Shown one piece after another: positions 32,624 to 41,021 of a DNA stretch of 64,000 bases. Below the pieces are notes generated by a model. The model saw nothing but the letters and a program-made list of their open reading frames with translations. It was not told the origin of the DNA and did not search any database. Every line of letters starts with the position of its first letter. Position 1 is the first letter of the stretch. This DNA comes from an uncultured Gemmatimonadaceae bacterium (GTDB taxonomy: Bacteria > Gemmatimonadota > Gemmatimonadetes > Gemmatimonadales > Gemmatimonadaceae). The DNA is taken from assembly GCA_963781585.1 (NCBI GenBank), contig CAWAGQ010000014.1:32001-96000 (forward strand), given 5' to 3'. The translations under genes and the position numbers were made by a program.

Positions 32624-32834
32624 GAGCGCCTTCGCGTGGGGGGGGGAAGCGGCCCCAGCCTGTCGGACGGGGCGCAATATACACACCCCGGCCGCCCTGT
32701 CGACTTCAGCGGTGTCCCGAACCGACGCCCGGTGAATCGAGCCAACCAGTAGCGCGAGATCCACTGCGAGTCGGATGGTGCGCTTCGCGGCCGGACCGTG
32801 CCCGGCAGCGAACGCGAGATTGGCGGGCGCTAAC

Positions 32835-34769
32835 CTACAGCGCCGCCACGAGCTGCCTGAGTGCCGTCAGCCGCTGCGTGAGCGCGTCACGCCCACCCAG
32901 TTTCTCCATCCGTTGCAGGATCGGATCGGGAAGGAACTCGCGGTCCGTGCACTCGATCATCGCCGCCACTTCCTGCAGCTCGCGTTCGATGCCCTGGGTG
33001 GAAGGCATGAATCGCGCGACGACCTCGCGGAGCGCGTCGGCGGTGACCCCGCTCGCTCCCGCCAGCAGCGACCGCCGCCACGCCCGACCCACCATCCCTT
33101 CGATGTCGGCACCGGAAATCTGCCCCTTCTGCGGAATCGCCGGTACGTCCCCGGCGCGGAGCGTCGTGCCGAGCTTCTTCGCCATCACCACGAACAGCTG
33201 GCGGACTTCGTCCTCGTCGTGCGGATAGAACAGCGGAATGTGCACCTCGGCCCGCCCCTGCCGCTTGATGTCGATCGGCAGGAGATCGGGCCGCGCCGTG
33301 AGCAGCATCCACAGGATCCGCCCGCGATAGCGCGTGTCGCCCATCTGGGTGGCGATCATGCCGAACACCCGGCTCGACGTGCCCGAATCGCCCTCCATGT
33401 CGCGGTCGCCTAACGCCGCGTCGGCTTCGTCGATGATCACCATCACCGGCCCCATCGCCCGCAGCACCGACAACACGCGCTCGAGGTTTCCTTCCGTCTC
33501 GCCGACGTATTTGGACCGGAAGTTCTTCAGCATCACGCACGGAATGCCGATCTCGCCGGCGGCGCACATCGCCAGAAAGGACTTGCCCGTTCCCACCGGT
33601 CCGCACAGCAGGTATCCCATGGGCACGCAGTCGAGCGCGCCACGGGCCAGCAGCGCCGCGTCGTCCCGCAGCCGCTGCTTCGCCGCGTCGTGTCCGATGA
33701 CCGTGTCGAGCTTCCACTTCGACTCGACGAACTCCAGCAGGCCCTGCCCCTGACGTTCCAGCAGGCGTTTCTTCTGCGCGCGGAACAGCGGGGCGTCGAG
33801 CCGCTCGCCGCCATCGGCTGCCGAACGAATGAGCACCGACAGGTCGTTGAGCGACATGCCCGCGCTCAGCGTCGCCAGCTGCTCAGGCGAATAGTCCGAA
33901 ATCGCGCTCCAGGTGACCACGGCCGGAGCGTATTGGGGGGGCGCGAGCGACCCACCGCCGGCCGCGTCGGGACGCCCGATGGTAGCCTCCTTCGCCCCAC
34001 CGGTTCGCGGGGGGTCGGTCGCGCTGGGCGCCGAGGCCGCGTCGCGCACGAAACCGAGTCGTTCGCGCTCGCCAGGGAGCGGGACCTCGATGGTGGCGAC
34101 GTGCGGATTTCCCGTGATGCGGTCGCTCAGGTCGGTCCGGCGCTCATCGATCAGCACGAACGCCATCTCCAGCCGCTTCACCTGCGTGCTGGTGGCCCAG
34201 TTGAGCAGCGTGACCGCCATGCCAGACGCCGGAAAGCTCAGACGCCCCGGCTCGCCGGCCGGGAGGAGATACGACGCGCTGCTGACGATGAACGCGAAGC
34301 GCAACCGCTTCTCGGGCGGCGCCATGATGTTCTCGCGCACGAACAGGTCGATCACGTTGAAAACGATCGTGGGATCGTTCTTCAGCGTCGACAGGTCGCC
34401 GATGCGTCGGGTGGCCAGCGCCACCATGTCCTTCAATCGCCGCTCGTTGCGCCCGGCGAACGCGCGCAGCCCGCGCCCCAGGTCGTAGTGCAGGATGAGG
34501 TCCCACTGGCCGAACATCTGCTCGGACAGGAAGTCCACCAGCCCGCCGAACGGCGCGCGCTCGGGCGCATCCACATCGGCCAGCGCGACCAGGTCGTAGG
34601 CGTTCCCGTGCAGCACGAACACTGACGTGGTGCCGGAGAAGTACAGATCGGCGAGCGAAATCGCCCACCCCGGATACCAGGCAGGCAATTCGTCGCGACG
34701 GGGCCGACGTCGCTCCGACTCCCCGGTGTCCGTCACGCCGGCAGGTGTCGCGGCCGACTCAGTGCTCAC
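32835..34769 (-). CDS. Classical AAA+ ATPase with degenerate N-terminal domain (Ycf46-like architecture)
   Basis: Walker A GPVGTGKS, pore loop SKYVGETE, Walker B IIDEAD, arginine-finger region KRQGR; start reset to GTG 34769, overlapping the upstream gene. Confidence 0.9.
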   Translation of the reverse strand: MSTESAATPAGVTDTGESERRRPRRDELPAWYPGWAISLADLYFSGTTSVFVLHGNAYDLVALADVDAPERAPFGGLVDFLSEQMFGQWDLILHYDLGRGLRAFAGRNERRLKDMVALATRRIGDLSTLKNDPTIVFNVIDLFVRENIMAPPEKRLRFAFIVSSASYLLPAGEPGRLSFPASGMAVTLLNWATSTQVKRLEMAFVLIDERRTDLSDRITGNPHVATIEVPLPGERERLGFVRDAASAPSATDPPRTGGAKEATIGRPDAAGGGSLAPPQYAPAVVTWSAISDYSPEQLATLSAGMSLNDLSVLIRSAADGGERLDAPLFRAQKKRLLERQGQGLLEFVESKWKLDTVIGHDAAKQRLRDDAALLARGALDCVPMGYLLCGPVGTGKSFLAMCAAGEIGIPCVMLKNFRSKYVGETEGNLERVLSVLRAMGPVMVIIDEADAALGDRDMEGDSGTSSRVFGMIATQMGDTRYRGRILWMLLTARPDLLPIDIKRQGRAEVHIPLFYPHDEDEVRQLFVVMAKKLGTTLRAGDVPAIPQKGQISGADIEGMVGRAWRRSLLAGASGVTADALREVVARFMPSTQGIERELQEVAAMIECTDREFLPDPILQRMEKLGGRDALTQRLTALRQLVAAL

Positions 34770-35634
34770 GAGCCATCGTCCGGCCCAAGTCGGCCTCCAG
34801 GATCGCCGGCGGGTCGGCAATCTGATCGGCCAGTCCCGAAAGACTCTGCAGCTGCTTCACGGCGTCCTCCGTCTGCTGCATGCTGTCCACGGCGGCCGTC
34901 ACCTGCGTGCTGAAGGTGTCGGGATCCTGCCGGCTCACCCCCATCTCCAGGAGCGCCTGGATCTTGGTCTCGATCCGGTCGAGCTCCACCGAGACGAACT
35001 CGGCGTCCTTCATACTCTTCTTATAGTTGTCGAGCCGCAGCTGGGCGTCTGCCAGGCTGTCCTGGAGTGATCGCGTCACGCGCTCGTCCTTCTCCTTCTG
35101 CGCGGCCGCCAGGCGATCCTGCACGTCCTTCAGCCGCAGCGACAGCTCTTCTTCACTGGTGCTCTTGAGGAATCGGTCCAGGCCGGCCTGGGACACGAGC
35201 AGCCGGAGGAAGAGAAAGAGCAGGCGGTCGAGGGCCGGCGTCCGGATCGAATCGGCGGAGTCGGAGCCGGTCGACGTCCGGCCCATCACGCCCGAGGCGA
35301 TGTCGCGCATCTCGAAACAGCGCTGGCGCAGCAGCAGAAAGCGCCGGAGCGATTGCGGCGGCAGGCCATTGATCATCCGCTGCAATTGTGCCGACGCCGT
35401 CGCGCTGGCCACGCGCCCGTCGATGCCCGCCCGTCCGGCGCTGGCGGCCTTCGCGTCAATGGCGGTACGGAAGCGCGGAATGGCAGTGAGACCCGTGAGG
35501 TAGGCGAGCTCCAGCCCGAAGGTGATGGGGACGAGCGCGTCCGGCCAGGGCGACAACGTTGCCAGCCCCACTCCTCCGAAGAAGAAGAGCAGGTTCCAGG
35601 GATACAGGAAGGCGGCCTTGAAGTATTTGAGCAA
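34759..35634 (-). CDS. Membrane-anchored coiled-coil protein
   Basis: Two N-terminal hydrophobic helices followed by long charged helical heptads. Confidence 0.8.
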   Translation of the reverse strand: MLKYFKAAFLYPWNLLFFFGGVGLATLSPWPDALVPITFGLELAYLTGLTAIPRFRTAIDAKAASAGRAGIDGRVASATASAQLQRMINGLPPQSLRRFLLLRQRCFEMRDIASGVMGRTSTGSDSADSIRTPALDRLLFLFLRLLVSQAGLDRFLKSTSEEELSLRLKDVQDRLAAAQKEKDERVTRSLQDSLADAQLRLDNYKKSMKDAEFVSVELDRIETKIQALLEMGVSRQDPDTFSTQVTAAVDSMQQTEDAVKQLQSLSGLADQIADPPAILEADLGRTMAREH

Positions 35635-35651
35635 GACGGCGGGTGGGGTGG

Positions 35652-35700
35652 GAGTCCAGAGTCCAGGGTCAAGAGTTGAGGGTCGAGAGTCCGGAGTCCA
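35652..35700. repeat. Degenerate 7-bp tandem array, 7 units
   Basis: GAGTCCA GAGTCCA GGGTCAA GAGTTGA GGGTCGA GAGTCCG GAGTCCA. Confidence 0.8.
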
Positions 35701-35780
35701 GCCGGAGATCGGAGGTTGATGGTCAGACGTCGGGAGTCAACGCACCGAACTGCCGGCACCTGGACCGCTCTTGTCTGCCT

Positions 35781-36719
35781 TCATTCGTCCCCCGCGCGTG
35801 TGGAGCTTTCCAGTCCTTCCATCACGTCGCGAATCTCGAACACCAGATCCATGAAGTGCTTCTGGCGCTGCATCTCGCGCGCCGGAAAATCCGGGGGCGG
35901 AACGGAGAGCTGCTTCAGGATGGTGCCGGGTGCCGACGAGATGATGAACGTGCGGTCGCCAAGATACACGGCTTCTTCGACATCGTGCGTCACGAAGAAC
36001 ACCGTCGCTTGCGTCTCACGCGCCAGGTTCACCAGCAGATCCTGCATGTTGAGCCGGGTGCGCGGATCGAGCGCGCCAAAGGGTTCGTCCATCAGCACGA
36101 TCTTCGGTTCGAGAATGAGGGTGCGCGCGATGGCGACCCGCTGGCGCATGCCGCCCGAGAGCTGGTGCGGATACTTCTCGGCATCACGGGCGACGTCGAG
36201 CCCCACCTTCCCGATCCAGGCGGACGCCCGCTCCCGGCGTTCGTGGGCGCCGACGCCGCGGCATTCGAGGCCGAACGCCACGTTCTCCAGCACCGTGCGG
36301 TTATCGAACGACGTGTAGTCCTGGAACACCATGCCGCGGTCGGCGCCCGGACCGATGACCCCGCGCCCCATCACCAGCACAGCTCCCGACGTCGCCGGGT
36401 GCTGAGGCCCCAGCCCCGCGATCAGCCGGAGGATGGTGGACTTGCCGCATCCGGAGGGGCCGAGGATGGTGATGAACTCCATGCCCTCGGGCCGGTCGGC
36501 GATCGAGAACGAGATGTCCTTGATGGCCGTGAAGCCGTTGTCGTAGGTCTTGGTGACGCGGTCGAACGACACCACAGGGGGCGGTGCAATGGCCGCGGCG
36601 GCCGGCCGCGCACCGAGGGCCGCCGAGGTCTCGCCCGCCGGCAGACCAGACGCGCTCGTGTCGCGAAACGCCGTGCCGCCGGAGGCGTCGGCGCCCGCGT
36701 GCCGGGATGGCGTGCTCAC
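35781..36719 (-). CDS. ABC transporter ATP-binding protein (NitT/TauB/SsuB type)
   Basis: GPSGCGKS, MVFQ, LSGGMRQR, LMDEPFGALD, VTHD. Confidence 0.95.
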   Translation of the reverse strand: MSTPSRHAGADASGGTAFRDTSASGLPAGETSAALGARPAAAAIAPPPVVSFDRVTKTYDNGFTAIKDISFSIADRPEGMEFITILGPSGCGKSTILRLIAGLGPQHPATSGAVLVMGRGVIGPGADRGMVFQDYTSFDNRTVLENVAFGLECRGVGAHERRERASAWIGKVGLDVARDAEKYPHQLSGGMRQRVAIARTLILEPKIVLMDEPFGALDPRTRLNMQDLLVNLARETQATVFFVTHDVEEAVYLGDRTFIISSAPGTILKQLSVPPPDFPAREMQRQKHFMDLVFEIRDVMEGLESSTRAGDE

Positions 36720-37561
36720 TCTCGCTGGAAGCGGTACGGGAAGAGGCCGCGCTGAAACCAGTACAGCAGGCGGTCGATGCCGTAGGCCAGCAACCCGATG
36801 AGGAACAGAATGGCGAAGATGTGTTCGGTGAGGCCCCGCCGCTGGCTCGTCATCAGCAGATAGCCCAGGCCGTGCTTCGCGTTCACCAGCTCGGCGAGCA
36901 TGATGTAGCCGAACGCGAGCCCGAACAGGCTGCGCAGGCTGCTGAAGATGTCGGGCAGCGCCAGGGCGATCAGTACCTTGGTGATCACCTGCCGCGACGA
37001 GGCGCCTAACGTCTGGGCGGTCTCGACGTACCGGTTCTGCACGCTGCTCACCGCCTGGGCCGCATTGAAGAACACGAACGGCACAGTGGAAATGAAGATG
37101 AACATCGTCTTCTGCGCTTCGTCGATCCCGAACCAGAGGATCGTGAGCGGGATCAGGACCGCCACCGGGATGTTGCGCGCGAAGACCGACAACGGGTTGG
37201 TCAGGGCGTCGAACAGCCGGTAGGCGCCGGCCAGGATGCCCAGTGGTACGCCGATGGCGATGGCCAGCAGAAAGCCGCTGAACACCCGCTGGAGCGTAGC
37301 CGCCACCGACGCGAGCAACGCCCGCTCACGGAACAGCGACGGCAGGCTGCGGATCACTTCGCCCGGACTCGGGAGGAGCACCGGCGAGACGAGGCGCGTC
37401 TCCGGCGTCTTCCCCAGCGTGAGCCCCCACCAGATCAGCACCGCGATGGCGATCCCCACCAGGCCAAGCGCGTTCCGGACCAGCACCGGAGGCTCGCTGC
37501 GCAGCGCGAACAGGCGCTGCAGCGATGACGGCTTGCGCTCCGCCACGGCGACGCCTTCCAC
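36716..37561 (-). CDS. ABC transporter permease (TauC/SsuC type)
   Basis: LLPSP, about 6 TM segments, EAA-like ETAQTLGAS, AELV..GLGY. Confidence 0.93.
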   Translation of the reverse strand: MEGVAVAERKPSSLQRLFALRSEPPVLVRNALGLVGIAIAVLIWWGLTLGKTPETRLVSPVLLPSPGEVIRSLPSLFRERALLASVAATLQRVFSGFLLAIAIGVPLGILAGAYRLFDALTNPLSVFARNIPVAVLIPLTILWFGIDEAQKTMFIFISTVPFVFFNAAQAVSSVQNRYVETAQTLGASSRQVITKVLIALALPDIFSSLRSLFGLAFGYIMLAELVNAKHGLGYLLMTSQRRGLTEHIFAILFLIGLLAYGIDRLLYWFQRGLFPYRFQRE

Positions 37562-37567
37562 GGCCGG

Positions 37568-39298
37568 CTACTTCGCCTCCAGCGGATATACCTTGATCTC
37601 GACGCGCCGGTTCTTGGCGTTGTTGTTGGGATCGTTCGCATCCGCCGGACGGTCCCAGCCCACCCCCACCGTGCTGAACTGGTTCGGCTGCAGCGAGGGG
37701 AACTTCCGCAGGAGCGACTGCTTGACCGCGTTCGCGCGCCGCAGCGACAGCTCCTGCACGTCGGCCGCGGTCACCCCCCCTGACCCGCGCATCGACGCGT
37801 CGGTGTGCCCTTCGATGACGATCCGGGCGGCACCGAACTGGCCCGACAGGCGTCCGGCCTCCTCGATCACGGCCGGGGCCTCGGGATCGTACAGTTCTTC
37901 GACCGCTTTCCCGTTCTCCTGCTTGGTGATTTTCTTGTCGATCTCGTCGGAATTGGGATAGAAGTGGATGACGATCGTCTTGGTCAGGATTTCATTGCTC
38001 TCGGCCTGGATCGTGGAGGCCGAGGCCGGCACGAACTGGACGTCGTACTCGCTCTTCTGGTTGGCGTAGAAGGGCTCGCTGCCGAGCTTCTTGATGATCG
38101 AGAAGTCCATGACTTCGTCGAACGGCACCGGTGTCCCGGACACGCTGCCGATGCGCTTGTAGAGGAAGTACGCGGTGTTCCAGGTACGCTCGAAGTTGGT
38201 GGGGTTGTTCTGGTTGAGGAAGAACTCGCGATTCTCGGCGTAGTTGGTCGAGTGCGCGTCGCCGAGCATCGCCAGCGCGTCCTTCTCCGGAATGGAATAG
38301 CCTGCGGCCATCAGCGACGCCGCCTGCGCCTTCCCGTCCTGGGACTTCAGGGTCTCCATCGACTCGAAGATCCCGCGCACCAGTCCTTCGACGATCCCCG
38401 GGTTGTCCTTGGCAAAATCGGCCCGGGCGAACCAGACGTCGGCGATCAGCTTGTTGGCCGTCTGCGTGTTCACCAGCATGCGGTTGCCCTTGGCCTCCGA
38501 CAGATTGTAGATGTCGGGCGACCAGCTCACCGCACAGGCCACGCTGCGGTCGGCGTTGAACGCCGCCGCGGCCTGGAAGGCATCCTGCGTGAACTTGGTG
38601 TTGATCTCGTTCGGCTGGACGCCGCCGCTGATCAGCGTATTGAGCAAGAAGTAGTGCGAAGGGGAGTTCTGCGCGAGCACCACCGTCTTGCCCTTCATGT
38701 CGCTCACGCTCTTGATGGTCTGGCGGCAGACGATTCCGTCTCCCCCGTTCGACCAGTCGATCTGCTGATAGATCCGCGGCATGGTCCGCGAGTCCTTGCG
38801 GAGCTGCTCCACGAACAGCGGCACCATGTCGAGTGTCGCCCAGCCGATGTGGATCTTGCCCGACGCATACGCGTCGCGCATCGCCACCGGGTCGTCGATC
38901 AGCACCAGCTCGAGCTTGAACGTCTTTCCATTTGGCGCCTTCCACGCCTTGCCGGCCTTGAAGCCGCCGTTGGCGAGAATCACCGGGGCCCAGCCGGCCC
39001 ACACGTTGAGCGCCATCCGCACCGTGTTGTCGACCAGCGGCTCATACGCCGACGTGCCCTTCACCTCGGGCAGCTTCGCACCGGGGACGTAGGTGTACTC
39101 CTTCACCGTAGTGGCCGTGGAGTTGTCCGGCGCCTCGGACACGTTCCCCTTCATCTTCGCCAGCTCGTCGGCCGACACCGAACCGCCCGTGTCTCCCGCG
39201 CCGCGACCGCTGAACCGGTTGACGCCGAAATACACCAGCGCTCCCACGATCAGGAGCATGACCACGTAGAATGCGGGTCTTGGCTTGCCGTTAGCCAT
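37568..39298 (-). CDS. Membrane-anchored NMT1/SsuA-like binding protein fused to an OmpA-like peptidoglycan-binding domain
   Basis: N-terminal TM; WAGWAP, DWSNGGDGI, SWSP; C-terminal IEGHTD..LSLRRANAV..NRRVEI. Confidence 0.9.
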   Translation of the reverse strand: MANGKPRPAFYVVMLLIVGALVYFGVNRFSGRGAGDTGGSVSADELAKMKGNVSEAPDNSTATTVKEYTYVPGAKLPEVKGTSAYEPLVDNTVRMALNVWAGWAPVILANGGFKAGKAWKAPNGKTFKLELVLIDDPVAMRDAYASGKIHIGWATLDMVPLFVEQLRKDSRTMPRIYQQIDWSNGGDGIVCRQTIKSVSDMKGKTVVLAQNSPSHYFLLNTLISGGVQPNEINTKFTQDAFQAAAAFNADRSVACAVSWSPDIYNLSEAKGNRMLVNTQTANKLIADVWFARADFAKDNPGIVEGLVRGIFESMETLKSQDGKAQAASLMAAGYSIPEKDALAMLGDAHSTNYAENREFFLNQNNPTNFERTWNTAYFLYKRIGSVSGTPVPFDEVMDFSIIKKLGSEPFYANQKSEYDVQFVPASASTIQAESNEILTKTIVIHFYPNSDEIDKKITKQENGKAVEELYDPEAPAVIEEAGRLSGQFGAARIVIEGHTDASMRGSGGVTAADVQELSLRRANAVKQSLLRKFPSLQPNQFSTVGVGWDRPADANDPNNNAKNRRVEIKVYPLEAK

Positions 39299-39402
39299 CT
39301 TGAACCTCAGCGCACAGGTACGGGCTCATCGCGCGGAGCAGCCCCGGTCCCGACGCCCATGGCGCCGGGCGCCGTGGGTGCTGATCTCCGGGCGACGAGC
39401 GT

Positions 39403-40149
39403 TCAGGACGATGCCTTCTCCACGGTCGGTCCCAGGTTCTTCACTGCTTCGGCAACCGGCGTCGTCTCGGGGGATTTGAGCCCGAGCTGCACCTCGTACT
39501 TCGAGAGCAGATCCTCGGCCATCGCCTTGTCGGCCGCTTCATCCGCCTTGATCTGTTCGATGCCCTTCGACGAGAGATCGGCGGCCACCCGGGCCTTCCC
39601 CCGGTTGGTGTCGATCTTCCGCTGGATCACATCCTCGATCTGCCCGAAATCGGTGGTGACGTTCATGTCGAACGATTCGGAGATCTGCGCGATCTCGGCT
39701 TCCGCCGCGCTCATCTTCAGCTCGGCATGGTACTTCTGGATCTTCTCGCGGACCTTGATGAGATCCTTGTTCGCCTTCTGGATCTTCAGCAGGTTGTTCT
39801 GGTACGCGGACTCGTGCATCTGGAGCTGCTGTTCGTTCTGCGCCAGCTCCGTCTGCACCTTCTGCAGCTGGATCGCCATCTGGCCGGCCACGTCGCGATT
39901 GCCCGCCTTCAGGTGCGCCTTGATCTGCGCCTCGAGCTGCGCGGCGTTCGCCTTGCCGTTGGCCACCTGACGCGCCACGGTTTCCACCAGACCGCGGTAC
40001 ATTTCCAGCCCTTTGCGTCCTTCCTGCAGCCGCTCGGTGGCCTGGTCCACTTCGAGCTGCATCACCGCAATCGGATCAGACTCGAAGAAGACGTTCGCGA
40101 TCTTGTTCAGCTGCGCGCGAATGGCCCGAAAGAACTTTTCCAGAATCAT
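39403..40149 (-). CDS. PspA/IM30 (Vipp1/ESCRT-III-like) family protein
   Basis: Amphipathic N-terminal helix MILEKFFRAIRAQLNK, ESDP hinge, continuous coiled coil, 248 aa. Confidence 0.82.
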   Translation of the reverse strand: MILEKFFRAIRAQLNKIANVFFESDPIAVMQLEVDQATERLQEGRKGLEMYRGLVETVARQVANGKANAAQLEAQIKAHLKAGNRDVAGQMAIQLQKVQTELAQNEQQLQMHESAYQNNLLKIQKANKDLIKVREKIQKYHAELKMSAAEAEIAQISESFDMNVTTDFGQIEDVIQRKIDTNRGKARVAADLSSKGIEQIKADEAADKAMAEDLLSKYEVQLGLKSPETTPVAEAVKNLGPTVEKASS

Positions 40150-41021
40150 GGCGTCGGCTTCCTCGGTCGCGGTGGAGTGACGGGCTTGGGCGTGGGAGGA
40201 GCGGGGGCCACCACCGATGACGAGTCAGCGGTGCGGGATGTGTCGTTGAGCGTCTCGCCCGCGTTCATCGCTTCGGCGAGAATCCGGCCGCGATAGATCG
40301 AGTCCAGGTTGGCGCGCAGGGCGAGACCGTTGCGCGCCTCCAGCACCTCGCCGCGCACATCGCGCACGAAGTTGAAGCGCGACGCGTCGACGTCGAACGC
40401 GACGAAGTACATCCGGACCGCGCCTTCGCTTCGGGCGTCTATCTCGCGAGCCACTACCCTGGGCGAACGCCCGGAGGTGTTCTCGCCGTCGGTGACGACC
40501 AGAATGTATTTCCGGATTGTTCCGGCGCGATACAGGTCCGCGCGTGCGACATCCATGGCGGTGCCGATCGCCGTGGCGCCATCGGGCATCGTCATCGCGT
40601 TGATCGCGCTGCGCAGCGCCTCCCGGTCGTACGGCTTCACGGGAACGAGCGGGACCACATTGGACGCGAACTGGTAGATCCCCACGTTCACGGGAAAGTC
40701 CAGTTGTCGCGCGACGAAGGAATCGGTGGTGGCCAGCATCGCCTCGAGGGCCTCGCGTGCCACCACGTACTTCGGCCGCGAATCGCCGGACGCCGTCCCG
40801 GTCATCGAGCCGGAGTTGTCGATCAGGATGGCCACCGAGGCCCCCAGCCCCTCGGAATGCTCGGGGACGTACCTCGGCATCGACGCCGGGTCGTTCTCCG
40901 GGGCGCCCTCGCCGGAATGCGCCGAACGCGCGCCACGCCGCGTCCAGAGGAACGCCGCCATCAACGCGAGGACGATGATGAACCCACGGGCGCTGCTTCT
41001 TCCGCGTCTCGCTGTGGTCAT
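40146..41021 (-). CDS. Membrane-anchored von Willebrand factor A domain protein
   Basis: MIDAS motif DNSGS, TAIG, VVTDGE; N-terminal TM; Pro-rich tail; ATGA overlap with pspA-like gene; start reset to MTTARR. Confidence 0.9.
   Translation of the reverse strand: MTTARRGRSSARGFIIVLALMAAFLWTRRGARSAHSGEGAPENDPASMPRYVPEHSEGLGASVAILIDNSGSMTGTASGDSRPKYVVAREALEAMLATTDSFVARQLDFPVNVGIYQFASNVVPLVPVKPYDREALRSAINAMTMPDGATAIGTAMDVARADLYRAGTIRKYILVVTDGENTSGRSPRVVAREIDARSEGAVRMYFVAFDVDASRFNFVRDVRGEVLEARNGLALRANLDSIYRGRILAEAMNAGETLNDTSRTADSSSVVAPAPPTPKPVTPPRPRKPTP

Follow-up and report, generated by a model that had tools for sequence, protein, structure and literature searches.

A conserved operon pairing a PspA-like protein with a classical AAA+ ATPase in a Gemmatimonadaceae genome

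Do bacteria encode a motor that remodels PspA polymers as Vps4 does those of ESCRT-III? The question is raised by seven co-oriented open reading frames (ORFs), all on the minus strand, at positions 32835-41021 of a 64,000-nucleotide stretch of an uncultured Gemmatimonadaceae genome (contig CAWAGQ010000014.1; the whole stretch is called the window hereafter). By ORF coordinates and Pfam they comprise a VWA protein, a PspA-like protein, a solute-binding protein joined to an OmpA-like domain (SBP-OmpA), an ABC permease, an ABC ATPase, a helical protein with two transmembrane (TM) segments (2TM protein) and an AAA+ ATPase. The accessible sections of a 2025 review describe a Vps4-like ATPase as apparently absent in bacteria (PMC7619361), and those of a 2024 structural paper state that no Vps4 counterpart is known (PMC11746142). 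We find that the locus is a real member of a known operon class that is already in print; what the first-pass annotation of this DNA had observed was confirmed, and its interpretation as a membrane-remodelling machine was partly supported.

The class was described by Ravi et al. (mSystems 2024; PMC11237479), whose section 18, Text S2.2 and Table S3, in their accessible parts, present the same six genes in the same order. The function put forward there is an ATP-driven remodelling of membranes akin to that by Snf7/Vps4, with a link to peptidoglycan and to the binding of solutes. The window agrees with row OGG56892.1 of Table S3 in all six components and in their order, and carries them on a single strand; the surmise that comparative surveys may already list similar loci was thus correct. 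Relative to the published operon, the window copy lies in a Gemmatimonadaceae genome and adds an upstream VWA gene of lipoprotein type (VWA has 0 occurrences in the accessible main text and supplement of PMC11237479), and a rearranged four-gene variant lacking the ABC genes was seen here. Among the papers listed by a literature search from 2024 onward, none reports an experiment on the ATPase of this operon by title or abstract.

Conservation of the operon and a four-gene variant

Relatives of the 2TM protein were collected in a one-genome-per-species scan by using a 7-sequence alignment of the protein and the peptide pattern ELDRIExKI, which returned 347 pattern matches and 236 confirmed relatives; the top 80 of the 236 were retained (34 from Gemmatimonadota, 44 from Acidobacteriota and 2 from Myxococcota). 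The presence of each other gene at these 80 loci was determined by tblastn with the window proteins, a locus being assessable for a gene where its contig reached far enough. As the loci were selected through the 2TM protein, the resulting tallies are conditional on its presence. At every assessable related locus the genes lay on one strand in the fixed order PspA, SBP-OmpA, permease, ABC ATPase, 2TM protein and AAA+ ATPase, with the AAA+ gene present in 77/77 assessable loci, the ABC ATPase in 69/69, the permease in 64/64, SBP-OmpA in 51/51 and PspA in 47/47. The same six-gene synteny holds in three genomes of the same family (G001, G002 and G009). Because order and strand are identical at every assessable related locus, the six-gene arrangement is far beyond chance, and the co-conservation across phyla on which the earlier interpretation depended was found in three phyla with no exception at assessable loci.

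Of all the components, the 2TM protein is the best marker of the system. Its family comprises 1169 clusters at 90% identity and 673 at 50%, and AAA+ homologues were found in 6 of 41 near relatives. A phylogeny of 63 AAA+ sequences was built with FastTree, rooted on a homologue from another context, after excluding rows shorter than 570 residues or with internal stops. The tree grouped the sequences largely by phylum, which suggests mainly vertical descent; two Myxococcota loci and one Acidobacteriota locus were nested beside Gemmatimonadota.

Among the 23 hits to the 2TM protein within the phylum, 15 scored just 124-146 bits, and inspection of three of these genomes (G149, G384 and G239) revealed a variant in which the order is 2TM protein, AAA+ ATPase, PspA and SBP-like-OmpA, at 25-37% identity. 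Within ~5 kb of the three loci, tblastn (E ≤ 1e-3), Pfam searches of the ORFs and profile searches detected neither a permease nor an ABC ATPase. This ABC-less, rearranged variant, which retains SBP-OmpA, is added here to the published description. Since it keeps four genes and drops the transporter genes, PspA, 2TM protein, AAA+ ATPase and SBP-OmpA would form the functional core; that these four travel together without the transporter also suggests a doubly tethered binding protein that is independent of it. The variant loci are L097 (8956-14029), L098 and L099, the first of which lies between hrcA-dnaJ and mutS2-dnaG.

Domain build of the encoded proteins

The PspA-like protein matched PF04012 at 45.4 bits (cut-off: 33.9), its residues 1-217 covering profile positions 1-213 of 220, and scored 45.2 bits in a genome-wide search with the same profile; its assignment to the PspA family in the first-pass annotation therefore stands above Pfam's own cut-off. 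A second, canonical PspA, which we add to the description of this system, is encoded elsewhere in the genome (contig C3:24217-24879, locus L094; PF04012 148.5 bits), and by these scores the operon protein is classified as a divergent PspA/IM30 paralogue. Its C-terminal tail reads ELGL[KR]SPET...K[DN]LGP. The terminal motif K-[DNE]-[LMI]-G-P is shared by the operon variants, whose PspA proteins are ~25% identical overall, and the canonical PspA of the genome lacks it. The 2TM protein likewise keeps a C-terminal motif, G..D.L...P, across variants. Such conserved tails on both proteins, also added here, are likely candidate handles for the ATPase.

The live AAA+ module is an intact classical one at residues ~400-600 (Pfam AAA, PF00004: 76.6 bits, 3.1e-21, residues 403-529). 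The C-terminal half aligned with Cdc48 D1 and D2 at E 8.4e-30, and Cdc48, VAT and p97 were the top hits in the PDB. Its motifs are Walker A GPVGTGKS, Walker B VIIDEAD, the pore loop SKYVGE and both arginine fingers (KRQGR); across 38 homologues, Walker A, Walker B, the YVG of the pore loop and the two arginine fingers do not vary. The intact Walker motifs and aromatic pore loop noted at first reading were thus recovered with the translation aligned to Cdc48. Affinity of the ATPase was judged from relative hidden Markov model (HMM) scores, by which NCBIfam TIGR01243 (CDC48; 57.5 bits, cut-off: 802.65) ranks above PAN, FtsH, IteA (40.9 bits, cut-off: 510) and CdvC (NF041006; 33.8 bits, cut-off: 650), all of these matches being far under their cut-offs.

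The N-terminal half of the ATPase, searched as a single sequence, matched nothing in Pfam at E ≤ 10 and nothing in the PDB. A 40-sequence profile of this half, searched against the PDB, retrieved the AAA domains of p97, Cdc48, Rix7, NSF, paraplegin and Vps4 (best E: 1.4e-6; 117 hits at E ≤ 10), and among the matches listed (60) all are AAA ATPases; the alignment spans the Walker B strand and the sensor-1 strand and extends to the lid. The Walker B position of this module holds SS in the window copy and DH in the family consensus, and no GK[ST] occurs in residues 1-400. The first module (~60-345) is therefore read as a degenerate, motif-less AAA and the protein as a tandem AAA+ ATPase, which confirms at profile level the published build of an inactive AAA followed by an AAA. 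An hhalign match between the two halves (14 columns, probability 1.5%) was rejected, as it pairs the sensor-1 strand of module 1 with the Walker B of module 2 and has no true register.

Conserved sequence starts near residue 45, with ~15 conserved residues ahead of the first module, and so leaves no room for an MIT or Cdc48-N domain. Searches gave no hit to MIT (Pfam E ≤ 0.01 for the whole protein, E ≤ 10 for the N-half), CDC48_N or Vps4_C, and no export signal was found on the ATPase. What remains of the Vps4-like motor initially suggested is a classical AAA+ co-conserved with PspA and the 2TM protein; the build itself is not that of Vps4, being tandem, with a dead first module, without MIT or Vps4_C, and with its best scores to Cdc48-type proteins. 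AAA+ homologues with 36-37% identity over the full length, hence also tandem, occur at loci L013 (8566-11059, genome G038) and L012 (genome G036), where they adjoin a PAS-domain protein and unnamed genes; a profile search found no PspA or 2TM protein near either.

The 2TM protein matched no Pfam family above cut-off. An AlphaFold2 model from 81 relatives was all-helical, with a predicted local distance difference test (pLDDT) score of 91.4 and a predicted TM-score (pTM) of 0.77. It predicts a TM hairpin at residues 12-51, followed by two helices, a loop, helices at 127-158, 161-180, 184-234, 238-251 and 253-266, and a tail; beyond the hairpin, the modelled cytoplasmic domain would be all-helical and comprise ~240 residues. 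A Foldseek search of the PDB with this model returned CdvB2 (E 0.21, probability 0.77), and a VIA fold search gave Vipp1 (Z 7.8), PspA (Z 7.0) and CHMP3 (Z 6.9). A language-model search suggested a look-alike in the Rv2743c (PspM) family, whose score of 0.87 is a lead only. No match to the protein was found in phage or plasmid collections.

SBP-OmpA matched Pfam OmpA (41.5 bits, 1.7e-10, residues 486-564) and NMT1 (26.2 bits, 8.9e-6), and its closest solved structures were TauA (6ssy, 1.2e-8) and SsuA, from which it is predicted to be a membrane-anchored periplasmic binding protein of the TauA/SsuA/NMT1 type with a C-terminal OmpA-like peptidoglycan-binding domain. The permease matched BPD_transp_1 (81.2 bits, 1e-22) and, in NCBIfam, SaoP (145.7 bits) and TauC (117.5 bits), both under equivalog cut-offs. 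The ABC ATPase matched ABC_tran (92.9 bits, 3.5e-26), its best NCBIfam model being the taurine ABC ATP-binding subunit (205.2 bits, cut-off: 357). The best hits of this putative NitT/TauT-type importer (TauA/SsuA, SaoP/TauC and TauB) are all under equivalog cut-offs.

The VWA protein matched Pfam VWA_2 (55.7 bits, cut-off: 27; 8.7e-15) and VWA (2e-13). Its start was placed at the ATG at 41021, which is preceded by GGAGGG; the longest ORF extends to 41273. The metal-ion-dependent adhesion site (MIDAS) motif, DxSGS...T...D, is intact, and the MIDAS residues are invariant in the aligned homologues. A lipobox-like Cys follows an N-terminal hydrophobic segment in 14 of 17 homologues, and this lipoprotein-type export signal indicates an extracytoplasmic protein; in the window copy and the two homologues closest to it, the segment is retained without the Cys. 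The gene was present at 19 of 42 assessable loci (Gemmatimonadota 5/14, Acidobacteriota 14/27, Myxococcota 0/1); on the AAA+ tree it occurs in all assessable members of one acidobacterial clade, in none of the other, and patchily within Gemmatimonadaceae. At loci without it, 14 upstream ORFs were scanned, of which 9 match Pfam families unrelated to VWA (the families upstream being M50B peptidase, DUF3604, reverse transcriptase, SusD, MalQ, ABC-F and DUF4159) and 5 have no family. We thus regard the VWA protein, on its predicted signals and distribution, as an optional periplasmic accessory. An optional, periplasmic VWA protein and an ATPase without export signal argue against an AAA+ adaptor role, which the first-pass annotation had noted as common for VWA domains. 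A VWA and MoxR-type AAA+ pair was likewise rejected, as the AAA+ is of the classical clade and the VWA protein carries an export or lipoprotein signal in 14 of 17 homologues and is missing from 23 of 42 loci.

Proposed mechanism and competing explanations

We propose that the 2TM protein organises a PspA polymer, which the tandem AAA+ ATPase remodels, with the wall-tethered binding protein as a periplasmic arm, and we give this reading a probability of roughly 0.45. The divergent PspA paralogue would polymerise on the cytoplasmic face of the inner membrane, where the 2TM protein may anchor it or co-assemble with it. In the ATPase, the dead first ring would serve as a scaffold or substrate platform and the live second ring, with its Tyr-Val-Gly pore loop, would pull subunits from PspA/2TM assemblies with ATP, by which the polymer would be remodelled or recycled; the ATPase would thus function like Vps4 on ESCRT-III and be built like Cdc48, and the C-terminal tails of PspA and the 2TM protein would be its likely handles. 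The binding protein, presumably held in the membrane through an N-terminal helix and on peptidoglycan through the OmpA domain, would report or exploit the state of the periplasm, joined by the ABC importer and the VWA lipoprotein at loci having them. What the ATPase acts on, what the binding protein does and all physical contacts in this scheme are inferred.

The basis for remodelling is the co-conservation of PspA with the AAA+ and 2TM genes across three phyla, from which the accessible text of Ravi et al. (PMC11237479) draws the same inference. The gene overlaps (4 bp, and 11-62 bp between the 2TM and AAA+ genes) amount to translational coupling and were counted in its favour. The following points weigh against it. 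The sensor-1 Asn of classical AAA proteins is replaced by Ala (TARPD; 33294-33308, minus strand, residues 505-509), the family consensus being LLTARPD with an invariant Thr two residues before the Ala. Phylum-wide occurrence is patchy, the 2TM protein being found at E ≤ 1e-10 in 23 of 401 sampled genomes and 8 of 148 genera. According to the accessible sections of the 2024 structural paper (PMC11746142), PspA rods hydrolyse ATP themselves and PspA functions without such an ATPase in most bacteria.

Further points against concern the 2TM protein. Its fold-search scores to Vipp1, PspA and CHMP3 are tied with those of BAR domains, VirB5/6 and designed helical proteins and are non-specific; a wide VIA fold search placed no ESCRT-III chain in the top 50. 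Neither Snf7 nor PspA ranks among the 25 most frequent family matches of the 81 relatives of the 2TM protein, and hhalign detected no profile similarity between it and the operon PspA (probability 0.13%). The published Snf7 assignment of this protein (the gene being the 'TM+Snf7' gene of the operon scheme of Ravi et al., with ESCRT-III homology unconfirmed here) could not be reproduced by these searches. Because the profile results are null and the fold matches non-specific, we treat it as a protein of unproven ancestry that may anchor PspA at the membrane or polymerise with it.

Beyond the remodelling reading lies the stronger claim of a working bacterial counterpart of ESCRT-III/Vps4, in which the tandem AAA+ ATPase would grip the tails of a specialised PspA and its membrane partner and disassemble their polymers with ATP, while a binding protein spanning inner membrane and peptidoglycan would signal where or when to act. 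We put this forward only tentatively and consider it less likely than not. If true, it would contradict the view, in the accessible sections of the 2025 review, that bacteria have no Vps4-like ATPase (PMC7619361).

The competing explanation that survives best, which we nonetheless consider unlikely, is that the ATPase, in the manner of Cdc48 or FtsH, extracts membrane proteins that are damaged or mislocalised, with the 2TM protein as its membrane adaptor and PspA sealing the membrane rather than serving as substrate. The best HMM and PDB matches of the ATPase, to Cdc48/VAT/AFG2-type unfoldases and not to Vps4, fit such an extractor, as do the overlap of the 2TM gene with the ATPase gene, the resemblance (again a lead only) of the 2TM protein to the Rv2743c (PspM) family of PspA membrane partners, and the AAA+ homologues at L012 and L013 that stand without PspA or 2TM protein. 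Against the extractor, PspA is co-conserved at 47/47 loci and again in the variant with rearranged gene order, the conserved tail peculiar to this paralogue suggests that it is recognised directly, and Pfam identified no protease or ubiquitin-like partner in the operon.

It is more improbable still that the operon is mainly a solute importer of the sulfonate, taurine or nitrate type, with PspA, 2TM protein and AAA+ ATPase as merely co-regulated stress genes that are not physically coupled to the importer. The match of SBP, permease and ABC ATPase to NitT/TauT-type importers is what such an importer would give, and the 104- and 146-bp gaps could hold internal signals. Against this stand a gene order fixed across three phyla, the variant that retains SBP-OmpA beside PspA, 2TM protein and AAA+ ATPase without permease or ABC ATPase, and the predicted double tether of the binding protein. 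A double tether (TM helix and OmpA domain) is unusual for a plain uptake system. To a membrane-acting anti-phage defence system we give very little credence: the PADLOC hits (IetA-like for the AAA module, 46.7 bits; ZorB-like for the OmpA domain, 27.1 bits; mad3 for the ABC ATPase) and the NCBIfam IteA match (40.9 bits, cut-off: 510) are all to generic domains and far under family cut-offs, PADLOC gave no hit for PspA, 2TM protein, VWA protein or permease, the flanks are housekeeping genes (queC and queE), the AAA+ tree suggests mainly vertical descent, and the 2TM protein is unmatched in phage and plasmid collections.

Locus layout and relation to known systems

The operon has the layout listed in Table 1. 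The seven co-oriented genes with their coordinates and domains, as well as three overlapping junctions and one 6-bp gap, had been reported in the first-pass annotation and were reproduced here (the genes from ORFs, Pfam and NCBIfam; the junctions from ORF coordinates).

Table 1. Features of the operon, in window coordinates
Feature	Position	Strand	Basis or remark
VWA protein, 291 aa from ATG at 41021	40146-41021	-	Pfam VWA_2, VWA
PspA-like protein, 248 aa	39403-40149	-	Pfam PspA_IM30 (PF04012)
PspA-SBP spacer, 104 bp, hairpin	39299-39402	-	RNA fold
SBP-OmpA binding protein, 576 aa	37568-39298	-	Pfam NMT1 + OmpA
ABC permease, 281 aa	36716-37561	-	BPD_transp_1
ABC ATPase, 312 aa	35781-36719	-	ABC_tran
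2TM helical protein, 291 aa	34759-35634	-	no Pfam family above cut-off
AAA+ ATPase, 661 aa	32835-34820	-	PF00004 at aa 403-529
Promoter-like site TCGACA-16-TATATT	32676-32703	-	between AAA+ stop codon and conserved part of next gene

The VWA and PspA genes overlap by 4 bp, as do the permease and ABC ATPase genes; the 2TM and AAA+ genes overlap by 62 bp with the longest ORF or by 11 bp with the GTG at 34769; and the 6-bp gap separates the SBP and permease genes. Two larger gaps, unstressed at first reading, lie between PspA and SBP-OmpA (104 bp) and between the ABC ATPase and the 2TM gene (146 bp). A simple promoter/terminator scan found no promoter or terminator inside the operon, and the sigma-54 -24/-12 consensus had no match in the operon region (15 matches in the whole window vs 21 expected by chance). 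Upstream lie queE and queC (by Pfam), and downstream an unrelated 437-residue gene, conserved solely in a genome of the same genus, which has its own promoter-like site; this site fits an operon end at the AAA+ gene.

The PspA-SBP spacer folds into a strong GC-rich hairpin (-64.5 kcal/mol, z -3.70; none of 200 shuffled sequences reached this stability). Spacers with z < -2 occur at 7 of 41 related loci, these being the long ones, and the hairpin is a trait of particular lineages, not of the operon at large; a palindromic insertion or an attenuator acting locally is the probable explanation. At L062 (3296-6625), the distance between PspA and the SBP gene is 3.3 kb greater than at other loci, suggesting an insertion, and at L085 (4231-5592) a reverse-transcriptase gene stands immediately upstream of PspA. 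Two acidobacterial loci, L069 and L071 (5700-9100), gave fragmented tblastn alignments for PspA, SBP and permease, which could reflect frameshifts, assembly errors or decaying copies.

For the disassembly of bacterial PspA/Vipp1 polymers, this operon class offers the most direct genomic candidate motor, and its parts, being small, soluble or easily truncated, are suited to in vitro reconstitution. The class being in print, the value of the window is not discovery; it sharpens the experiment instead, in that the VWA protein appears dispensable, a four-gene core and a dead first AAA module are indicated, and two candidate tail handles are named.

Compared with classical Psp systems (E. coli pspF-pspABC, B. 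subtilis liaIH and M. tuberculosis clgR-pspA-rv2743c), the operon shares the pairing of PspA with a small integral membrane partner. Unlike them, it contains no PspB, PspC, LiaI or PspF and no sigma-54 match in the operon region, its AAA+ protein is of the classical clade and not an NtrC-type enhancer-binding protein, and a separate canonical PspA is encoded in the genome. With the type II AAA+ proteins Cdc48, p97 and VAT the ATPase shares the predicted tandem AAA build and the best sequence matches for both halves; unlike Cdc48/p97, module 1 has no Walker A or B, there is no Cdc48-type N domain, and the CDC48 model scores far under its cut-off. From Vps4/CdvC the ATPase differs in lacking MIT and Vps4_C, in having two AAA modules instead of one, and in its score to the CdvC model (33.8 vs 650 bits), and from ESCRT-III systems the operon differs in having PspA instead of the Snf7 family and extra periplasmic and transporter parts. 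In common with ESCRT-III/Vps4 (CdvB/CdvC), a polymer former of the ESCRT-III superfamily, PspA, is genetically tied to a classical-clade AAA+ ATPase with an aromatic pore loop, and the conserved C-terminal tails of the presumed substrates recall the MIT-interacting motifs (MIM) of ESCRT-III.

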